Shown: piece by piece, positions 2,794 to 30,091 of the stretch | Layout of the letters: each line of letters begins with the position of its first letter | Position numbering within the stretch: position 1 is the first letter of the stretch | Sequence record: OR670062.1 | Direction: 5' to 3' (one strand) | DNA: 37,572 nt | From: Escherichia phage SKA5 | Notes under the pieces: model-generated | Told to the model about the DNA's origin: nothing | What the model saw: only the letters and a program-made list of their open reading frames with translations | The model's database searches: none | Made by a program: the position numbers and the translations under genes

Positions 2794-3114
2794 CTAAATC
2801 AGATCACCAATGTATTTTGCACTAATTGAAATTTGCATCTGAGGCATTCCGACCACAGATCCATTTAACAGGTAATCACGTCCTCGTTCCTGCAAAGAAA
2901 GACTCAATTCAAAGTTCTTTACCCCAGGGAAAACCGAGGTGACATTTAAATCATGCTGCGATACGCGCAGAATAAGTTGGCTACCGTCAATTTTTCCCTG
3001 ATACGTAAAACCAAAATCTCCGCCGTTTACTGCATTGTTTTTGACAACTACGGTACCATTACCAAAATCACGTTGATTGCTTCTGAAAACAACAAAATAG
3101 ATACCATCTTTCAT
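2794..3114 (-). CDS. hypothetical protein (AT-rich moron between lysis and packaging genes)
   Basis: 106-aa ORF with no signal peptide, its own terminator, and visibly lower GC than the flanks. No family recognised. Confidence 0.5.
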   Translation of the reverse strand: MKDGIYFVVFRSNQRDFGNGTVVVKNNAVNGGDFGFTYQGKIDGSQLILRVSQHDLNVTSVFPGVKNFELSLSLQERGRDYLLNGSVVGMPQMQISISAKYIGDLI

Positions 3115-3206
3115 GTGTAAAGCCCTTTAAAAGAGTCACCAAAATCAGGTGCTTTGTATCTATTGGGCCATCACATATCAAATCAAGGAACAAAACAAAG
3201 TTAACA

Positions 3207-3476
3207 TCATTTTTTTTGCATGATGTGACCACGCTCAACTTCAATCCTTCTGATGTCAGCTTTATCGGTATTACACTGCGCCAATGCAGACAACAAGGCG
3301 ACATTCAGATCTAAGCTCGAGCCCCACGTAAAATGATCAGGTAAATCAGGCTGAGGGGTTTCAGCCGTCAGGCTGGCTGGTAACGGAACTACCGGAACCT
3401 GGACGTAAACTGTTCGCGTACTTCCGCAACCGGTCAGCAGCGGCAGCAGGCACAGGACGTGAAGCACAATCATCAT
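3207..3476 (-). CDS. Rz1-like outer-membrane spanin lipoprotein
   Basis: ORF in an alternative frame overlapping the 3' end of the Rz-like gene. From the MM start: signal peptide with lipobox LLTGC followed by a Pro-rich segment. Confidence 0.55.
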   Translation of the reverse strand: MMIVLHVLCLLPLLTGCGSTRTVYVQVPVVPLPASLTAETPQPDLPDHFTWGSSLDLNVALLSALAQCNTDKADIRRIEVERGHIMQKK

Positions 3477-16791: not shown

Positions 16792-16830
16792 AGAAAACTC
16801 CTGAAGTTATACCGAAACAATTCCTGTTGT

Positions 16831-17250
16831 TTACTCATCATCAATAGATGATACGCAATATTTATTTTTAAATTTAAGGTTCTTTGGCGTAACTTCATCA
16901 GAGATATCAAAACCGTCCAGAATTCTATTGAATGTAGCTTCTGGCATATCATCATGAACAGAAATCTCACCCGATCGCTGCTTTCTAACCATGTTATCCA
17001 CTCGCCAAATTATAGCTTCAGCGTAAACAACATAACTTGGATGCTTGATAAAGCGATGATCACCAGAATTCAAGACGCAAGACGGATCGTGGGGGACACC
17101 ATCCTTGATACTAGAAATATTAACAACTAAAACACAATAACAATCGTTAACGGGGTAATAAACAGGATCATTACAAATCACATGAAGATGATTGCATGGC
17201 CCAGTTGGGGCAAGCACAGTTCCTTTCCTGTATGGCTGATAATCCGTCAT
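16831..17250 (-). CDS. hypothetical protein; candidate toxin/effector partner of the Panacea-domain protein
   Basis: 139 aa, Cys/His-containing, AT-rich codon usage. Its start overlaps the stop of the upstream Panacea-like gene (ATGA). No family recognised. Confidence 0.5.
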   Translation of the reverse strand: MTDYQPYRKGTVLAPTGPCNHLHVICNDPVYYPVNDCYCVLVVNISSIKDGVPHDPSCVLNSGDHRFIKHPSYVVYAEAIIWRVDNMVRKQRSGEISVHDDMPEATFNRILDGFDISDEVTPKNLKFKNKYCVSSIDDE

Positions 17251-17819
17251 GATAATTGCAAAGAAAATTCCTTAAGTTTCTGAGATTCTTCCATTTTGCC
17301 AATTATGCGATTAGCCTCATCCTCGCTTTTACCCTCACTGATCAGCATTTCTTTCAGGTCTATAGGCTTACGAGAATTGCCAGGATCGTGCCACTCTGGA
17401 CAAACGCTTTCTAAATGCGTCATATTTGCGAGATCAAATCGGTTCATATGCCCATACCGAGAATAGATTTCATCTAAAATCCGGATATCTGCACGACTCA
17501 ATTCATCAAAGACCTCGTCTGCATCCATTTCCCTCGGATCTGAACGCAACGATACATTATGCCCGTTCGTCTCTATCAAGTTGTACCAGTAGTCACCAAT
17601 GCCTTCAGCCTTACCGCGAATCAAGTTCAGCGTATTCGACATGACTGGTCCAAATTTCATAGAGTAAAGGCTATCTTCGCCGATCATCCTGCCATGCTTC
17701 AAAATCGACTGGCGGTTAGACAGATAGAGCAACTTCATCAATTTCAGATATGCCATGCGCCCACCTCGCTTAAGAAGTAGGTATGCAGCCATTTGAGCTA
17801 CTTTTTCTTCGCAAAACAT
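17247..17819 (-). CDS. Panacea (DUF4065, GepA/SocA-like) domain protein; candidate antitoxin
   Basis: 190 aa with motifs I associate with DUF4065 (AAYLL, KLMKLLYLSNRQS, FGPV, ILDEIYSRYG...LANMTHLESVCPEW). First gene of an AT-rich minus-strand unit. Confidence 0.6.
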   Translation of the reverse strand: MFCEEKVAQMAAYLLLKRGGRMAYLKLMKLLYLSNRQSILKHGRMIGEDSLYSMKFGPVMSNTLNLIRGKAEGIGDYWYNLIETNGHNVSLRSDPREMDADEVFDELSRADIRILDEIYSRYGHMNRFDLANMTHLESVCPEWHDPGNSRKPIDLKEMLISEGKSEDEANRIIGKMEESQKLKEFSLQLS

Positions 17820-18011
17820 ATAAGAAACCTCAAAGATAGTGAACTTTATAATTATTCTCGATACTTCATGGGTTGCTTCATCACCAACACGAGCTTCTTA
17901 TGGTGTGCCCACTTGGGCCTAAGCAACCAGTTACCTCGTTTGTCAAGTTTATAGCTGGCTTTAACCATGGTCAATTGAAGTGATGAGCAAATGATGCTTT
18001 CTAAGAATAAC

Positions 18012-18246
18012 AGGTTCCCAATAGGATCCCACAAAGTGTATAACTAGTTGTTTTTCAAAAACGGTACATCCTATCGAGCATAGGAGCAATGCTAAACCGA
18101 GAATTCCAGTAAACACCAGTTTTTTCAGGCATCACGCTGGTTTGATTAATTTTTTGTGTTTCATGATTATCGTGCATTTTTGAACATTTCAGGCTATTTT
18201 TCTCGCATTAGGTTCCCGCACAGGTTCCCACGTTTTATGGGAACCC
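18012..18246. repeat. clustered (A/G)GGTTCCC(A/G) repeats; candidate integrase arm-type sites / attP region
   Basis: Copies at 18012-18020, 18023-18031 (one mismatch), 18210-18218 and 18222-18230, with an inverted copy at 18238-18246, in the AT-rich non-coding stretch just upstream of the integrase gene. Confidence 0.35.
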
Positions 18247-18265: not shown

Positions 18266-19363
18266 ATGGCGTACTATAACATAGAGAAACGACTAAAATC
18301 CGATGGCACACCACGCTATCGCTGTAATGTGATTATCAAAGAAAAAGGTGTTATCACTTACAGGGAAAGCAAAACATTCCCTAAACATGCTCATGCCAAA
18401 ACATGGGGCACACAGAAAGTGATGGAATTAGATCTATATGGCATTCCATCATCAAATGCAGTTGACGGACTTACAGTCCGTGACTTACTACACAAATATT
18501 TAAATGACCCAAATGCCGGAGGTAAAGCAGGCCGTACTAAAAGATATGTGCTGGAACTGCTTATGGATAGTGACATCTCCGCGATCAAACTATCTGAACT
18601 GACAGAAAATGACGTAATTGAACATTGCAGGCTAAGAAACAACGCTGGCGCAGGTCCAGCAACAGTCAGCCACGATGTTAGTTATCTTGGCAGTGTTCTG
18701 GATGCGGCCAAACCTGTATACGGAATTAATTACACATCAAACCCGGCGAAAAGTGCTCGTCCATATCTACTTAAACTTGGTTTGATTGGTAAATCAAACC
18801 GTCGTAATCGTAGACCAGCATCTGATGAACTGGACATGCTCATTGAAGGCCTTCAACAACGATCTACTCATAAATGCTCAAAAATTCCGTTCGTTGATAT
18901 CCTCAAATTTTCTGTGTGGTCCTGTATGCGAATCGGAGAAGTATGCCGGTTACGATGGGAAGATCTCGACCAGGAACAAAAATCTATACTCGTAAGAGAC
19001 AGGAAAGATCCACGCAAAAAGGAAGGCAACCACATGAAAGTAGCCTTGCTTGGGGAAGCCTGGGATATCGTCCAACGACAGCCCAAAAAATCGGAATTCA
19101 TTTTTCCATATAACAGCACTTCTATTACTGCGGGATTTCAGAGGGTAAGAAGCAAATTAGGTATTAAGGATCTGCGATACCATGATTTGCGTAGAGAAGG
19201 GGCAAGTCGCTTATTTGAGGCTGGTTTTAGTATTGAGGAAGTAGCCCAGGTTACAGGGCATCGTTCATTAAACGTGCTATGGCAGGTATATACCGAACTG
19301 TATCCGAAATCTTTACATAATCGTTTTGAAGAGCTCCAAAGGAGCAGAAATAAGACCCCTTGA
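18266..19363 (+). CDS. tyrosine-type site-specific integrase
   Basis: 365 aa with C-terminal catalytic-domain motifs (HDLRREGASRLF, GHRSLNVLWQVY). Confidence 0.9.
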   Translation: MAYYNIEKRLKSDGTPRYRCNVIIKEKGVITYRESKTFPKHAHAKTWGTQKVMELDLYGIPSSNAVDGLTVRDLLHKYLNDPNAGGKAGRTKRYVLELLMDSDISAIKLSELTENDVIEHCRLRNNAGAGPATVSHDVSYLGSVLDAAKPVYGINYTSNPAKSARPYLLKLGLIGKSNRRNRRPASDELDMLIEGLQQRSTHKCSKIPFVDILKFSVWSCMRIGEVCRLRWEDLDQEQKSILVRDRKDPRKKEGNHMKVALLGEAWDIVQRQPKKSEFIFPYNSTSITAGFQRVRSKLGIKDLRYHDLRREGASRLFEAGFSIEEVAQVTGHRSLNVLWQVYTELYPKSLHNRFEELQRSRNKTP

Positions 19364-25170: not shown

Positions 25171-26249
25171 CAGAACGGGTCCTCCTGTACTCTGGCTTTT
25201 TTCTTTTTCCGCGCGCCGGGGGCTTCGGGTTCAGGCAGATAAGCATCAGGCGGGCCGACACGGATTTCCGTCAGGGTGCCGTTCTGGTCCTGAGTAAACG
25301 TGACTTCCGAAACAAGCAGTTCGGTATTGTCGAAACCACAGACCGGATCAAAGACAATCACCCGCTGGTTGGGCTGCCACAGCGTACCGTTACCCTGTCG
25401 CCAGCCCTGCACCACATAGGTGGTTTCATCCGTCCGCGCCGCCCGTTGTCGGGCTTCAAAGTCAGCACGGGCAATACAACCTGCCCCCGTAGCCTGCCCT
25501 GTCTGCCTGATATACATCGGACGGTAACGGGCAATAAATGCGTCCTCTGTGCGGGCCCGCAGCGCGGTGGTGGTGGCCTCACCGAAATCATCGTCGTTTC
25601 CGGCACGCTGCCCCGCCACCTGGTAAACAGAAAATCGCTCCCGGATACTCTTCTCCGTATCGCAGGAAAGGATGTTTTCCCCGAGTACCAGCGCGGTATG
25701 TGCCCGCGTTGAGCCAATACCGCCAATCACCAGCCTGCCGTGCGGGTCGTCGTAAGCCAGTGCCTGCTGCTGACCGAGTATTTTGTTAATCACCTCGATC
25801 ACCGTTTCACCGTGATCAGGCTGGACATCAGGAATAACACCCGACGGCGCACCGCTGTTCACCACCTCAATGCCGAAGGGCGCAGCAAGCGCCTGCGCAA
25901 TCTGTACCAGCGATCGTCCGTTAAACTGTGTCGGTTCGGCTGCACAATCAATCAGGTCAGCGGTCAGACTGCGTCCGGCAATACCGGTGCTGACCGAACG
26001 GGCATCGTAACGAACGGGCGTCGCCTCCACCCAGCCGGTGATCACCAGCTCATCACCAATCAGCACCTCCACTTTTGAACCGTTTTTAATGCGCGGCTGA
26101 AGCGTGGTGATACCCTCATCACCCGGCCACTGGCGGGTGATCTCCACACTGAAATCCCGCGCCAGCCGTTCAATACCGGCACCGATGCGCACCGATGTCC
26201 AGCCATTCCACTCCCGGCCATTTACCCGTAGCGTGACATTGTCGTTCAT
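25170..26249 (-). CDS. baseplate hub protein (Mu gpP / gp44-like)
   Basis: 359 aa downstream of the DNA circularisation protein. Confidence 0.7.
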   Translation of the reverse strand: MNDNVTLRVNGREWNGWTSVRIGAGIERLARDFSVEITRQWPGDEGITTLQPRIKNGSKVEVLIGDELVITGWVEATPVRYDARSVSTGIAGRSLTADLIDCAAEPTQFNGRSLVQIAQALAAPFGIEVVNSGAPSGVIPDVQPDHGETVIEVINKILGQQQALAYDDPHGRLVIGGIGSTRAHTALVLGENILSCDTEKSIRERFSVYQVAGQRAGNDDDFGEATTTALRARTEDAFIARYRPMYIRQTGQATGAGCIARADFEARQRAARTDETTYVVQGWRQGNGTLWQPNQRVIVFDPVCGFDNTELLVSEVTFTQDQNGTLTEIRVGPPDAYLPEPEAPGARKKKKARVQEDPF

Positions 26250-27574
26250 TGCACTGGCACCTTCAGAGGGATCACCGGCACAAAGCCGGGATGCGTAATG
26301 GCATTACGCCGAATAATGTCCGCGTCACGCGCCGCGTTATCAAACCAGGTCGCCGCCAGCACCAGCGCGGGTAAAACCTCATCCGGTGTGCGCTGAATGA
26401 TCCGTGCAGACTGTTCAAGGCGCGTGTTGATATCCGCATTCAGATCTGCTTTCACCCGGCGCAGCGCCAGAAACAGCGCATCACTGGTTGTACGGGACAA
26501 CTCCTTATCAATTGCCGTATTCAGTGTGTCGCGAATGTCAGTCAGTTCTTCCCACGTCGGCAGGTCAACTGTGTTTTTCACCGCCGGTGCATTGTTCAGT
26601 GCCGGATGCGTGACGGAAGGCCAGCCAGTGCTCTGCGCAGGTGTTGTTGCCTGCCCCACTGCGGCATTCTGCATCACCGCGGAAGTTGTTGGCGCAGGCA
26701 ATCGGGTGACGGCATACGCCGCTTCGCTGATTGCGGTCGTACGAAGGGTGCTGGCAACCACGTTACGCTGCTGCGTCGCCGTGGCGGTGGTTTTACTGTC
26801 CGTTTTCCAGACGCCGCGCGGTTGCAGATCGCTGCCAAGGCTGACACCAGAAAGCGTTTTGATCATGGTGACCAGGTCGCTGGCGTTACCGTAAAGGCGT
26901 TTCCCGGTACGCCACATTTTCTGCACCTGCTCAACGAAATTTTTGCCTGACGATGGTGGCGGCAGAAGTACCGAGATATCCCCCTGCAACAGCCTGGCCG
27001 CATCCGATACGGCAGAATCCACCACTTTCATCGCATCAGAAACATACCCCAGCATTATGCTGGCATTACCGATAACGTCGTTCTGCACGAAATCCGCCAC
27101 ACCATCGATACTGAAACCGCTGAAGCTGTCACTGATGCAGTCATCCAGTGCAGAACAGGATGACATCAGCGTCTGCGCCGTCGCCGCACCTGATGTGGGG
27201 TAAGAGAGTTCTCCTGCTTCGACAAACTTCAGGTCAAAGCGGACAATACGCCCTTCACTTTTCGATGTGCTGACCCGAACTTCCCCGTCAACACAGACTT
27301 TCAGCTCACCATATGTCGGGTGGACAAGCGTGCCTGGACCGGGTTTATTCAGCGCGTCAATCAGGCGATCGCGCTGGTCAAAGCAGTCATCTCCTACCAC
27401 ATAAGCTGTGATGGACGGGCGGAAAGTGACTTTTCCCAGATCTTCGGTATAGGGCTTGTCGCGGTTCGGATATTCGTGTGTTTCCACACGGCGACCGGTT
27501 CCCGCACTTTCTTCTTCAACCTTAAACGGTACGCCGCGAAATGACGCATCCTGAAGCCTGTCTTTCCACGTCAT
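26246..27574 (-). CDS. DNA circularisation protein (Mu gpN / gp43-like)
   Basis: 442 aa; N-terminus (MTWKDRLQDASFRGVPFKVE) typical of the family. Confidence 0.75.
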   Translation of the reverse strand: MTWKDRLQDASFRGVPFKVEEESAGTGRRVETHEYPNRDKPYTEDLGKVTFRPSITAYVVGDDCFDQRDRLIDALNKPGPGTLVHPTYGELKVCVDGEVRVSTSKSEGRIVRFDLKFVEAGELSYPTSGAATAQTLMSSCSALDDCISDSFSGFSIDGVADFVQNDVIGNASIMLGYVSDAMKVVDSAVSDAARLLQGDISVLLPPPSSGKNFVEQVQKMWRTGKRLYGNASDLVTMIKTLSGVSLGSDLQPRGVWKTDSKTTATATQQRNVVASTLRTTAISEAAYAVTRLPAPTTSAVMQNAAVGQATTPAQSTGWPSVTHPALNNAPAVKNTVDLPTWEELTDIRDTLNTAIDKELSRTTSDALFLALRRVKADLNADINTRLEQSARIIQRTPDEVLPALVLAATWFDNAARDADIIRRNAITHPGFVPVIPLKVPVQ

Positions 27575-27664: not shown

Positions 27665-28159
27665 CTATCTGAGTTGAACATCAATGGAATAAATATCACC
27701 ACTCTTTATAAATTTAGAATCTGTCCTTTCATCAAAAGATTCAAATGACTGTACCTTTAAAAACTTTTTCATTTTATTTTCAAAAATACTTTCATTAACA
27801 CCAGTTAAATACTTGAATGCTCTACCAGCAAGGACCTCATTACTTAAATCCATTGTGTTTTTATTGTCTTTGAAAAACCAAACAATAACCTTTTGTGGGC
27901 ATGATGGATTATAAACAGATATATAAAACTGCGGTTCATATTTTTCATCAGCGTCATCACTAAGCATTTCTTCAGAAGATAATTCTCTTCTGAATTCATA
28001 TTGCCGCTTAGTTATTCCTTCATCCTTTATTATCTCTTGCTTAACTGGTGCAATACCTATAGAAGAGATTAATTCTGACTCATTAAAGCTGAACTTACAC
28101 TCTTCCGCAGCCAAGTTAAAAGATAAAAGTGCAGATATAAAAAAAACAAAGATACGCAT
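27665..28159 (-). CDS. secreted hypothetical protein (AT-rich moron inside the tail operon)
   Basis: 164 aa from MRIFVFF with a GAAGGG SD; the ORF-track start is 28177. N-terminal signal peptide (FISALLSFNLAA / EECK) with no lipobox. Strongly AT-rich. Confidence 0.6.
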   Translation of the reverse strand: MRIFVFFISALLSFNLAAEECKFSFNESELISSIGIAPVKQEIIKDEGITKRQYEFRRELSSEEMLSDDADEKYEPQFYISVYNPSCPQKVIVWFFKDNKNTMDLSNEVLAGRAFKYLTGVNESIFENKMKKFLKVQSFESFDERTDSKFIKSGDIYSIDVQLR

Positions 28160-28258
28160 AATCATCCCTTCAATCATTTGTAAGGAATGATTATATTAAC
28201 TACTTAAATCTGAAAACCCAAATTATGCCAGACAAAAACACATTAATCATTTTGTACA

Positions 28259-30091
28259 CTACCTGAACCGCGTATAGCCAACATCATGGCTGACATCAAA
28301 ACCGCTGGATCGCGTTTCCATAACCCGCATACCCGGAGGCGAATTCACAAAAGATACCTTGATCTCACCATCAACTTTTGGCACAGAAGCTTTGTTAATC
28401 ATGAAGGGATTCGAGCCTGTGGCATCGGAGGCGTTGTTTGCCTGAGCCGGATCCACCGCCGGATAAGGAGTGTATCCCCGTGGCGGTATTCCCGTCCCAT
28501 AAGCATCATAAGCACCCGCGCCCCACTGCGCCGAGTTAATGGCATCGACCGTGTCACCGGAACTGTCGGTAAACCATTCAATAATCGGCTTCAGCTTACC
28601 CCACATATCCTGAAACCACTTAACAACCGGTCCCCAGTTATTGATCACCATCCCCAGCGGCGACCAGGCAAAAACCTTCTTCAGAAGTTCCCAACCTGCC
28701 TCAAAATAAGGACCAATGGTTTCCCAGAGCTTCTTGAAATAAGGTCCGACAACATCCCAGTTAGTGATAATTAATCCCGCAGCCAGAGCAATCGCCGTCG
28801 CAATCATGCCAATCGGCGTCATCGACATGATCCTGCTGACAATACTGATGGCACTGCCCACGCCCATCAATCCCAGTTTCAGAATCGCAAGACCGGCAGC
28901 AAGCCCGACGACGCCGCGAATAACCCGGGGATTTTCATCCGCAAACTTCGTGAATTTCTCCCCCAACTCCCCCAGCCATTGTGTGATATTTTTAGCGTCA
29001 CCAGAAAATGCGCCGCCAATAGCCGCAAGGCCGTTAGTTGCGGTCCCTGTCATTGCCTCCCACAGGTTGGACAGCGTACCAAGCTGTGCCTGAACACGTT
29101 TATTCAGGCTGGCCTGTTTATTCATCTTCTGCTGGATCTGATCGTAGCCATCCTTTCCTTTATCGATTAGTGCATTGACCACCTGAAGGGTTTCGGCATC
29201 ATCACCAAATATTGCCTTAAGTACACCTGTTCGCTTAACGTCGGTCAGTTTTCGCAGCTTTGCCAGTTGCCTGAACATGTTATCAAGACCGCCAAAACTT
29301 CCTTTGCCGTCAGTAAAATCGAGCTGTACCCCGAGTTTCTGGCGGGCCATAACTTTATTAACGTCCCTGATTTTCTTAACGCTTAATCCGGACTGGATAA
29401 CTTTTCGCAGGGCATTACCTGCCGACTCCCCGTTCATCCCCATCTGATCCATCATGACGCTGATGGGGGCAAGGCTCTGTGCAGCCTGAAGACCATCCTT
29501 GTTCACCATCTTCAGAACAGAACTGGTTTTAGTGAAGAAGGACAACATGTTGGTATCGTCAACGCCCAGATAAAACGCCTTCTGGATAGTGTCGAACAGC
29601 CCCATCATGTCTTCTGACGCCGTTCCGGTAGCATCCTGCATCTTTGCAGCAAACTCAGCAGCCGCTTCCGGTGTTTTTTTCAGTTGTACCGCAAGATAAG
29701 CTGTCGCTTTACCCACACCACCCAGAATGTTTTCTGCCGGGATCCCCTGACGCACCAGCATCTGCATCATGTTCTGGAAATCAGCCGTTGTACCGGGTAG
29801 CTGGTTACCCAGGCCAATAGCCAGTTTATTGATGTCCTGAAAGCTCTTTCCAACCTCGCCGTTCGCATCCATCATGGCGACTTTCAGCCCGGTGGCGGCG
29901 TTTTCCTGATCGGCATAAGATTTCAGGGAAAGCGTCAGACCCGCTGCCAGTCCGCCACCAAGCGCCAGCCCACCCTGTGACGCTTCTTCCGCCTGGCGTT
30001 TAAATCCCCGGATTTTCTTTTGCATTTTCGACAGCGCGGGAGAAAGCCTGTCGACACCGGTGATCAACGCCTTAAGCTCAAATTCAGCCAT
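28259..30091 (-). CDS. tail tape measure protein
   Basis: 610 aa, Ala/Gly-rich with hydrophobic stretches, downstream of the frameshifted chaperone genes. Confidence 0.85.
   Translation of the reverse strand: MAEFELKALITGVDRLSPALSKMQKKIRGFKRQAEEASQGGLALGGGLAAGLTLSLKSYADQENAATGLKVAMMDANGEVGKSFQDINKLAIGLGNQLPGTTADFQNMMQMLVRQGIPAENILGGVGKATAYLAVQLKKTPEAAAEFAAKMQDATGTASEDMMGLFDTIQKAFYLGVDDTNMLSFFTKTSSVLKMVNKDGLQAAQSLAPISVMMDQMGMNGESAGNALRKVIQSGLSVKKIRDVNKVMARQKLGVQLDFTDGKGSFGGLDNMFRQLAKLRKLTDVKRTGVLKAIFGDDAETLQVVNALIDKGKDGYDQIQQKMNKQASLNKRVQAQLGTLSNLWEAMTGTATNGLAAIGGAFSGDAKNITQWLGELGEKFTKFADENPRVIRGVVGLAAGLAILKLGLMGVGSAISIVSRIMSMTPIGMIATAIALAAGLIITNWDVVGPYFKKLWETIGPYFEAGWELLKKVFAWSPLGMVINNWGPVVKWFQDMWGKLKPIIEWFTDSSGDTVDAINSAQWGAGAYDAYGTGIPPRGYTPYPAVDPAQANNASDATGSNPFMINKASVPKVDGEIKVSFVNSPPGMRVMETRSSGFDVSHDVGYTRFR

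Follow-up and report, generated by a model that had tools for sequence, protein, structure and literature searches.

Kurata et al. (2022, PNAS, PMC8832971) surveyed the neighbourhoods of genes encoding DUF4065, gave this domain the name Panacea and sorted the partner proteins into toxin clusters. One of these, cluster T6, bears the HHpred label "EndoA/PemK/MazF-family RNases" and is listed with antitoxin-first pairs from many Proteobacteria. The T6 pair of Pseudomonas moraviensis is validated: its toxin (PanT) is toxic and is neutralised by its own antitoxin (PanA) with no need for ClpXP or Lon, the complex of the two was pulled down, and PanT specifically blocks the incorporation of 35S-Met, i.e. 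translation (PMC8832971). Ernits et al. (2023) described the Panacea fold as compact alpha/beta, with helices alpha1-alpha7 and two beta strands, and reported that standalone Panacea domains are capable of direct neutralisation. Here we analyse the panA-panT locus of Escherichia phage SKA5 (OR670062.1; the whole stretch of 37,572 nucleotides is referred to as the window). Judging from its sequence, the locus is very probably a type II PanA-PanT toxin-antitoxin (TA) module of cluster T6, carried as a cassette by a dusA-integrating, SfV/Lys8385Vzw-like mosaic temperate phage. Both genes are on the minus strand and overlap by 4 nt (ATGA), an arrangement that makes them a translationally coupled pair within one predicted transcription unit running to a strong terminator.

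The open reading frames (ORFs) of 190 and 139 aa and their ATGA overlap are exactly as a first-pass annotation of this DNA had given them, and all the motifs it quoted are found in the translations. Its proposal that the 190-aa product is a Panacea/DUF4065 protein is borne out by a hidden Markov model search, in which PF13274 (SocA_Panacea) matches residues 27-137 of PanA with an E value of 2.2e-19 and 70.9 bits (gathering cut-off 25.7). The same domain is carried by 120 of 120 PanA homologues among the matches listed. The best-conserved stretch of PanA is residues 1-26. Its AlphaFold2 model (predicted local distance difference test score, pLDDT, 93.1) has a compact alpha/beta core, helical with short beta hairpins, together with a short helix (155-161) and a long C-terminal helix (166-189); a Foldseek search of this model against the PDB found no similar solved structure (best E 0.32).

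The founding Panacea (DUF4065) protein is SocA, the antitoxin of the type VI TA system SocAB of Caulobacter crescentus, and it has the same Pfam domain as PanA. The window pair could in principle work in the same way, with PanA as a protease adaptor that hands the toxin to ClpXP, and some close PanA homologues do carry the RefSeq label "SocA family protein". This mode of action is nevertheless very improbable here: PanA scores only 14.4 bits with the NCBIfam SocA equivalog NF047745, whose cut-off is 190, its partner is unrelated to SocB, neither ClpXP nor Lon is required for neutralisation in the validated PanAT pairs, and the complex of the T6 pair is stable. Whereas SocAB depends on proteolytic delivery, direct binding is expected for the window pair, and by analogy with the P. 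moraviensis pair PanA would neutralise PanT by direct stoichiometric binding, without ClpXP or Lon.

The 139-aa partner had been described as matching no family. That description stands for Pfam, NCBIfam and PADLOC, where only noise (ICMT, DapC) or nothing was returned; it does not stand for PHROG 19071 (unknown function), the sole library match, nor for the published cluster T6. The partner is therefore not new, being already in the literature and having a recognisable MazF-like fold in structure prediction. Word-indexed searches with PanT returned 62 and later 253 clusters, all unnamed and without Pfam domains, and an exhaustive HMMER search retrieved 3,339 family representatives (50% identity clusters, E up to 1e-3). 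The PanT family is large, unnamed and without a Pfam model. In E. coli the Prokaryotic Genome Annotation Pipeline (PGAP) calls a later start (WP_014640052.1, equivalent to 16831-17217 of the window), which yields 128 aa and loses the ATGA overlap; we prefer the 139-aa start because the family N-terminus, M..Y.PYRKGT, is conserved.

Assignment of the 139-aa protein to T6 is based on its relatives in four genomes that Dataset S1 (PMC8832971) lists under this cluster: Pantoea septica LMG 5345, Yersiniaceae 2016Iso4, Salinivibrio socompensis S35 and Gluconacetobacter diazotrophicus PA1 5. The antitoxin-to-toxin spacings that we computed in these genomes, -4, -1, +1 and +15, are the tabulated values, and the G. 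diazotrophicus member was retrieved with an E value of 2e-43. On this sequence evidence the window protein is a T6 PanT. The window copy itself is absent from the part of Dataset S1 that was searched, and a literature search found no paper mentioning the accessions of this E. coli phage copy.

The primers of Kurata et al. define the P. moraviensis toxin as MPGNIL...IRQNNF and the start of its PanA as MIFSEQKVAQ. Pseudomonas loci whose PanA starts with MIFSEQKVAQ encode toxins that start with MPGNIV, end in RQNDL or RNNNL, and overlap panA at -1. With a toxin of this type the window PanT shares 40% identity (E 1e-28), a figure that refers to a close Pseudomonas proxy chosen by its matching termini and not to the P. 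moraviensis PanT itself, which loosens the tie to the validated toxin; the window PanA is 42-45% identical to the PanAs of the same type. The window and P. moraviensis pairs thus have the same two families, the antitoxin gene first, overlapping genes, PanA N-termini of one type (MFCEEKVAQ in the window) and the toxin signature HLH...D..C......H in common. They differ in setting: the P. moraviensis pair is scored "NotPhage" in the published data, whereas the window pair is phage cargo at a dusA attachment site. A closer relative is found in the Pseudomonas phage Sirocco, with PanTs 48% identical (E 3e-39) and PanAs 49% identical. In this P2-like phage the pair lies near the genome end, beside the portal gene, and the gene for the 132-aa PanT homologue (OR683410.1, 1486-1884, plus strand) is uncalled, a 44-aa ORF on the opposite strand (1741-1875) being annotated instead.

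Co-occurrence of the two genes was analysed in 32 species-representative loci, of which three have no upstream DNA, leaving 29 informative. In all 29 the toxin gene is immediately preceded, on the same strand, by a gene for a PanA homologue (27 intact pairs and two decayed), so the co-occurrence check proposed in the first-pass annotation came out in favour of a pair. The overlap is -4 in 17 of the 27 intact loci, with spacings ranging from -4 to +27 nt, and the identities of PanA and PanT to their window counterparts are correlated (Spearman 0.78, p 2e-6). PF13274 is also found upstream of the toxin by precomputed Pfam labels in Proteus, Gluconacetobacter, Shewanella and Pseudomonas contexts, and PanA is upstream in every additional context examined. 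Since the 119 neighbouring ORFs span 113 Pfam families, with no conserved third gene, the conserved unit consists of the two genes alone. The pair qualifies as a TA-like locus as Kurata et al. define it (genes no more than 100 nt apart, at least two species, no longer operon), and the antitoxin-first order, the overlap and the fit to a type II system that had been predicted from the sequence are all found, with a partner in a cluster one member of which is a validated translation inhibitor.

The contexts of the pair are typically mobile, namely the ends of prophages, islands next to integrases and clusters of transposases. Eight phage records, from six host genera, contain the toxin, and only three plasmids do. 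About 4% of complete E. coli genomes carry panAT. Among 208 E. coli carrier genomes panA is complete in every one and panT is truncated in five, including a remnant in which panA survives and panT, with all other prophage DNA, has been lost to IS903B. Truncation of panT alone fits a TA pair. The carriers conserve panT better than panA: nucleotide identity of at least 99% is seen in 196 of the 208 genomes for panT (16831-17246) and in 72 for panA (17251-17819), which suggests faster antitoxin divergence or recombination within panA. In the Proteus/Providencia toxin cluster, the accessions AYY81064, AYY81154 and AYY82117 belong to one GenBank series, a hint at several copies per genome, and the gene adjoining the pair in Proteus prophages alternates between a UPF0167 gene and an Abi_2 abortive-infection gene.

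Several observations weigh against reading the window pair as a TA system. Of 25 PanTs that Kurata et al. assayed, eight showed no toxicity in E. coli and five were not rescued by PanA (PMC8832971), the toxicity of the window copy is argued from homologues, about one in 25 complete E. coli genomes carries the pair at no obvious cost, and the panT-only truncations could come from decay of the prophage interior, panA being outermost. The 139-aa protein might accordingly be harmless in E. coli, with both proteins serving the phage life cycle. We consider this improbable, as the strict coupling and co-divergence hold over Gamma-, Beta- and Alphaproteobacteria in unrelated contexts, an intact toxin without PanA was never found, and a homologue of about 40% identity is a validated toxin.

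The predicted fold of PanT is an SH3-like barrel of the MazF/Kid type, with MazF and Kid placed ahead of CcdB by both fold searches. In the 135 sequences compared, H21 (135/135), D55 (132/135), C58 (129/135) and H65 (134/135) are near-invariant, as are S72, Y76, G113 and S117. H23 and C26 are restricted to one subfamily, and the positions of S46 and S47 always hold Ser, Thr or Cys. D55, C58 and H65 lie within a long loop (48-71) that is modelled very confidently. The MazEF, Kis-Kid and PemIK systems are likewise antitoxin-first bicistronic operons, and MazF inhibits translation, as does the P. moraviensis T6 homologue of the window toxin. Their antitoxins, however, are MazE or Kis of the AbrB/ribbon-helix-helix type, in contrast to the Panacea protein of the window, and PanT departs from MazF-type toxins in its short beta1-beta2 loop and two extra helices (84-93 and 122-131). 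The catalytic pair of E. coli MazF is R29, at the start of beta2, and T52, at the end of beta3; this pair is apparently absent from PanT, whose invariant residues are His, Asp, Cys and His.

At the sequence level no relationship to MazF could be established. PF02452 (PemK_toxin) does not match PanT at E up to 1, so that the link is structural only; searches of the PDB with the single PanT sequence and with the family profile found no MazF and no meaningful match; and hhalign of PanT against a thin MazF/Kid/EndoA profile gave a probability of 0.4, which is not significant. This profile was made of three sequences (MazF, Kid and EndoA), among which E. coli MazF was checked against the PDB. The resulting alignment places PanT H21/L22 opposite MazF H28/R29 and S46/S47 opposite T52/T53, and because it is non-significant we claim no mapping of catalytic residues. 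An RNase activity of PanT would be an extrapolation, since the invariant His/Asp/Cys/His set does not correspond to the MazF Arg/Thr pair, and this set may leave room for other chemistry. MazF-like RNA cleavage is the leading mechanism, with about an even chance of being correct.

One alternative is that PanT is a non-MazF enzyme or binder on the same barrel, either a metal-dependent (His/Asp/Cys/His) nuclease or modifier, or a gyrase poison like CcdB. The invariant H21, D55, C58 and H65 are classic metal-ligand or catalytic residues, three of them in the loop 48-71, and PanT has no sequence-level similarity to MazF or PemK. We still find it unlikely: MazF and Kid rank above CcdB, the non-significant alignment of H21/L22 with H28/R29 and of S46/S47 with T52/T53 would be compatible with a conserved active-site location, and the P. 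moraviensis T6 homologue blocks translation and not DNA or RNA synthesis, which speaks against a gyrase poison and, by analogy with these published labelling data, makes a CcdB-like target unlikely for the window protein. The first-pass annotation had instead pointed, as a weak possibility, to an R-x6-H stretch (RSGEISVH) that would make the 139-aa protein a HEPN-like RNase. The stretch is present (R92 to H99) and does not withstand comparison, as position 92 is mostly Ala, Lys or Gln and position 99 Lys, His or Arg in the 135 sequences, and the predicted fold is a MazF-type beta-barrel and not the all-helical HEPN fold; the chance that PanT is a HEPN RNase is negligible. Free PanT would arrest growth through a block of protein synthesis, by analogy with the validated P. 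moraviensis pair, and its most likely route would be RNA cleavage at the site used by MazF, by a chemistry that would have to be different. The features of the locus are listed in Table 1.

Table 1. Features of the panA-panT locus and its surroundings (window coordinates).
Feature	Position	Strand	Basis
panA, 190-aa standalone Panacea antitoxin without an extra N-terminal domain	17247..17819	-	PF13274 match; AlphaFold2 model
panT, 139-aa toxin candidate, MazF/Kid/CcdB-type fold, Kurata cluster T6; signature H21, D55, C58, H65, S72, Y76	16831..17250	-	
Swappable cargo cassette (promoter region, panA and panT)	16802..18012	.	1,211 bp, GC 0.41; mEp460 comparison
orf3, 57-aa phage-backbone ORF (PHROG 2741, unknown function) with its own AGGAG ribosome-binding site	16618..16791	-	PHROG match; sequence
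Promoter-like TTGACC-N17-TAAACT, 126 nt upstream of panA	17946..17974	-	Consensus scan; recurrence in relatives
Palindrome TTGACCATGGTTAA overlapping the -35 box	17961-17974		
Ribosome-binding site GAGG, 8 nt before the panA ATG	17828..17831	-	Sequence
Strong hairpin terminator (11-bp stem and T-run), end of the panA-panT-orf3 unit	16574..16599	-	Prediction
Approximate attP crossover core TCGAGCAT in dusA-like sequence	18074..18081	.	Prophage junction comparison; BLAST edges approximate
Phage-borne surrogate dusA 5' end (40-codon ORF in the free phage)	18055..18177	-	PGAP partial tRNA-dihydrouridine synthase at junction; "DusA / integrase" annotations
dusA-specific tyrosine integrase (context)	18266..19363	+	PF00589, E 1.6e-20; integrase in related records

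The window is a mosaic temperate phage, with structural genes about 97% identical to those of SfV, SfII and vB_EcoM-720R4 and an early and integration region that matches the Stx1-converting phage Lys8385Vzw. The panA-panT genes lie, as had been noted, between the early genes and the attP (phage attachment site)/integrase region, specifically between a PrtN-like gene, which ends the rightward-reading early genes at 16570, and attP/int. The block 16796-17900, originally singled out as AT-rich, has a G+C content (GC) of 0.406 compared with 0.507 for the whole window, placing it in the lowest 1.7% of equal-size windows; the adjoining integrase region is also low (0.42-0.43). Homology to phage mEp460 stops at 16801 and restarts at 18013, and the exchangeable cassette is therefore 16802-18012, slightly wider on the right than the original block. 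The idea of a cargo island is well supported, since mEp460 and many O157:H7-type prophages share the flanks and hold in the slot one unrelated 177-aa gene instead of panA-panT. In mEp460 this alternative gene lies at 2889-3422 (minus strand); it encodes a PHROG 4350 protein common in prophages of Shiga toxin-producing E. coli, and has neither a Pfam nor a PADLOC match.

To our knowledge, no earlier work describes the attP-side slot of dusA-integrating lambdoid phages as a hotspot. The gtr serotype-conversion cassettes sit beside attP in SfV/SfII-type phages, whose structural genes resemble those of the window. The slot also resembles other attachment-site-proximal cargo systems in that related phages hold alternative cargo in the same position, and the P2/P4 defence hotspots (Rousset et al. 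2022, PMC9122126) likewise consist of a short, AT-rich, exchangeable cassette at attP/integrase in a conserved backbone. Unlike these hotspots and the gtr cassettes, the slot of the window phage holds a TA pair that lacks a demonstrated phenotype of defence or conversion. The small orf3 is kept in dusA-type phages regardless of cargo, with its strong ribosome-binding site and a terminator in common with the cassette. It was considered as a third component of the module and rejected, since it belongs to the phage backbone, being present in mEp460 without panAT, and among the loci scanned only the E. coli prophage loci have it. It is probably co-transcribed with panA and panT, so that the cargo promoter would also drive orf3.

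Comparison of prophage junctions indicates how the cassette is placed in a lysogen. In 205 complete E. coli genomes the panA-side junction shares every base with the window as far as about 18081; beyond it there are about 19 clustered mismatches over the dusA 5' coding stretch, and similarity is lost entirely upstream of the dusA start codon. The flank on the int side, which matches the window from 18074 on, carries intact "DusA | integrase" annotations. Elements of this kind, as described by Farrugia et al. (2015, PMC4482086), supply a new dusA 5' end, while the original 5' end stays at the other end of the element. On the sequence of these junctions, integration of the window phage restores dusA at the integrase end of the prophage and, given a Farrugia-type arrangement, a lysogen has the host dusA promoter and 5' remnant immediately before panA-panT, in the same orientation. 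The cassette would thus be at the prophage end, behind the displaced dusA promoter. The direct repeat ACAGGTTCCCA, at 18010-18020 and 18220-18230, flanks the dusA-like core, and copies of GGGAACC/GGTTCCC occur between 18000 and 18260; ACAGGTTCCCA and the related motifs are probably arm-type sites for the dusA-specific integrase.

Because the cassette is downstream of, and co-oriented with, the displaced dusA promoter and has a promoter-like element of its own, it is likely to be expressed in the lysogenic state. This element recurs upstream of panA in Pluralibacter and Kosakonia, as TTGACC-N17-TAGACT, where the surrounding DNA has diverged. The dusA-like ORF and panA are separated by a spacer of 235 nt, terminator prediction gives none from the dusA fragment to panA, and the panA leader is not unusually structured (z -0.53). 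Two points tell against expression of this kind: in the promoter scan the panA site agrees with the consensus at 9/12 positions, with no enrichment of such sites relative to shuffled sequence; and transcription from the dusA promoter into panA-panT is purely inferred. At its other end the unit shares its terminator, back-to-back, with the converging PrtN-like gene, and Rfam gives only sub-threshold terminator-like matches at 16574-16599. When the locus was searched for an RNA component, such as a type I/III-style RNA or a riboswitch, no Rfam match exceeded its threshold and no tRNA was present.

The payoff of the module could be abortive-infection defence against other phages, prophage stabilisation or plain selfish persistence, all of which are candidates. 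In the first case an infecting phage would release or activate PanT, with Panacea as the sensor, and the shut-off of translation would abort the infection or exclude the superinfecting phage. The cassette occupies a variable cargo slot at a prophage end; in Proteus, Yersinia phage YeP1, Shewanella and Pseudomonas, homologous pairs border integrases or lie at the ends of prophages; in one Proteus variant the neighbouring gene is an Abi_2 gene and, in other species, some neighbours match defence models such as PD-Lambda-5_B, PD-T4-2_A and NsnA. Ernits et al. (2023) put forward the hypothesis of a sensor role for Panacea and connect TA systems with defence. These points make defence a tentative possibility, set against which the neighbours are mainly unrelated housekeeping or mobile-element genes, the alternative slot cargo PHROG 4350 is likewise of unknown function, the literature yielded no paper testing a PanA/T6 pair against phages, and neither PanA nor PanT matches a PADLOC-DB 2.0 model at E up to 1, a result that counts against the PanAT assignment as well.

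Prophage stabilisation is doubtful. Here the loss of the prophage end would remove a labile PanA and leave PanT to arrest the cell, which agrees with the location of the module at the extreme prophage end by the attachment junction and with the E. coli carriers, where panA is never lost and panT is sometimes truncated. The lability of PanA is, however, an assumption; the validated systems neutralise independently of Lon and ClpXP, the asymmetry between the two genes is also explicable by the direction of prophage decay, and the family is nearly absent from plasmids, the usual home of addiction modules. A more specific proposal combines the enzyme and the setting: T6 PanTs would be a distinct enzyme class on the MazF barrel, with an invariant His21/Asp55/Cys58/His65 centre that is possibly metal-dependent, and the lysogeny-wired module behind the displaced dusA promoter would act as an abortive-infection switch specific to lysogens, in which Panacea senses the phage. 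We regard this combination as quite unlikely.

Earlier publications already cover this type of system, its antitoxin domain and toxin cluster, and a validated homologue; the E. coli phage copy of the window is an unstudied and fairly ordinary member of that family, which does not overturn current understanding. What it adds is a family, PanT T6 with a MazF-like fold, for a "hypothetical protein" of about 4% of complete E. coli genomes and of an Stx1-converting phage. Two annotation errors are also exposed: the start codon that PGAP assigns in E. coli, and the omission of the toxin gene from the phage Sirocco record. The chemistry of PanT is of interest as that of a large family without a Pfam model and with an invariant His/Asp/Cys/His set unlike that of MazF, and the lysogeny-coupled position behind the dusA promoter is the remaining point of interest. 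The attP-side slot of dusA-integrating phages, as a place of exchangeable cargo, could be mined for further lysogeny-expressed genes.

Elsewhere in the window there is a second AT-rich island at 27665-28177 (minus strand), with the lowest GC of the window (0.34). It holds a 170-aa ORF located between two tail genes, the tape measure gene (28259-30091) and the gene at 26246-27574. A Pfam search with this ORF returned no match; its product has a hydrophobic, signal-like N-terminus, and the ORF looks like another moron.

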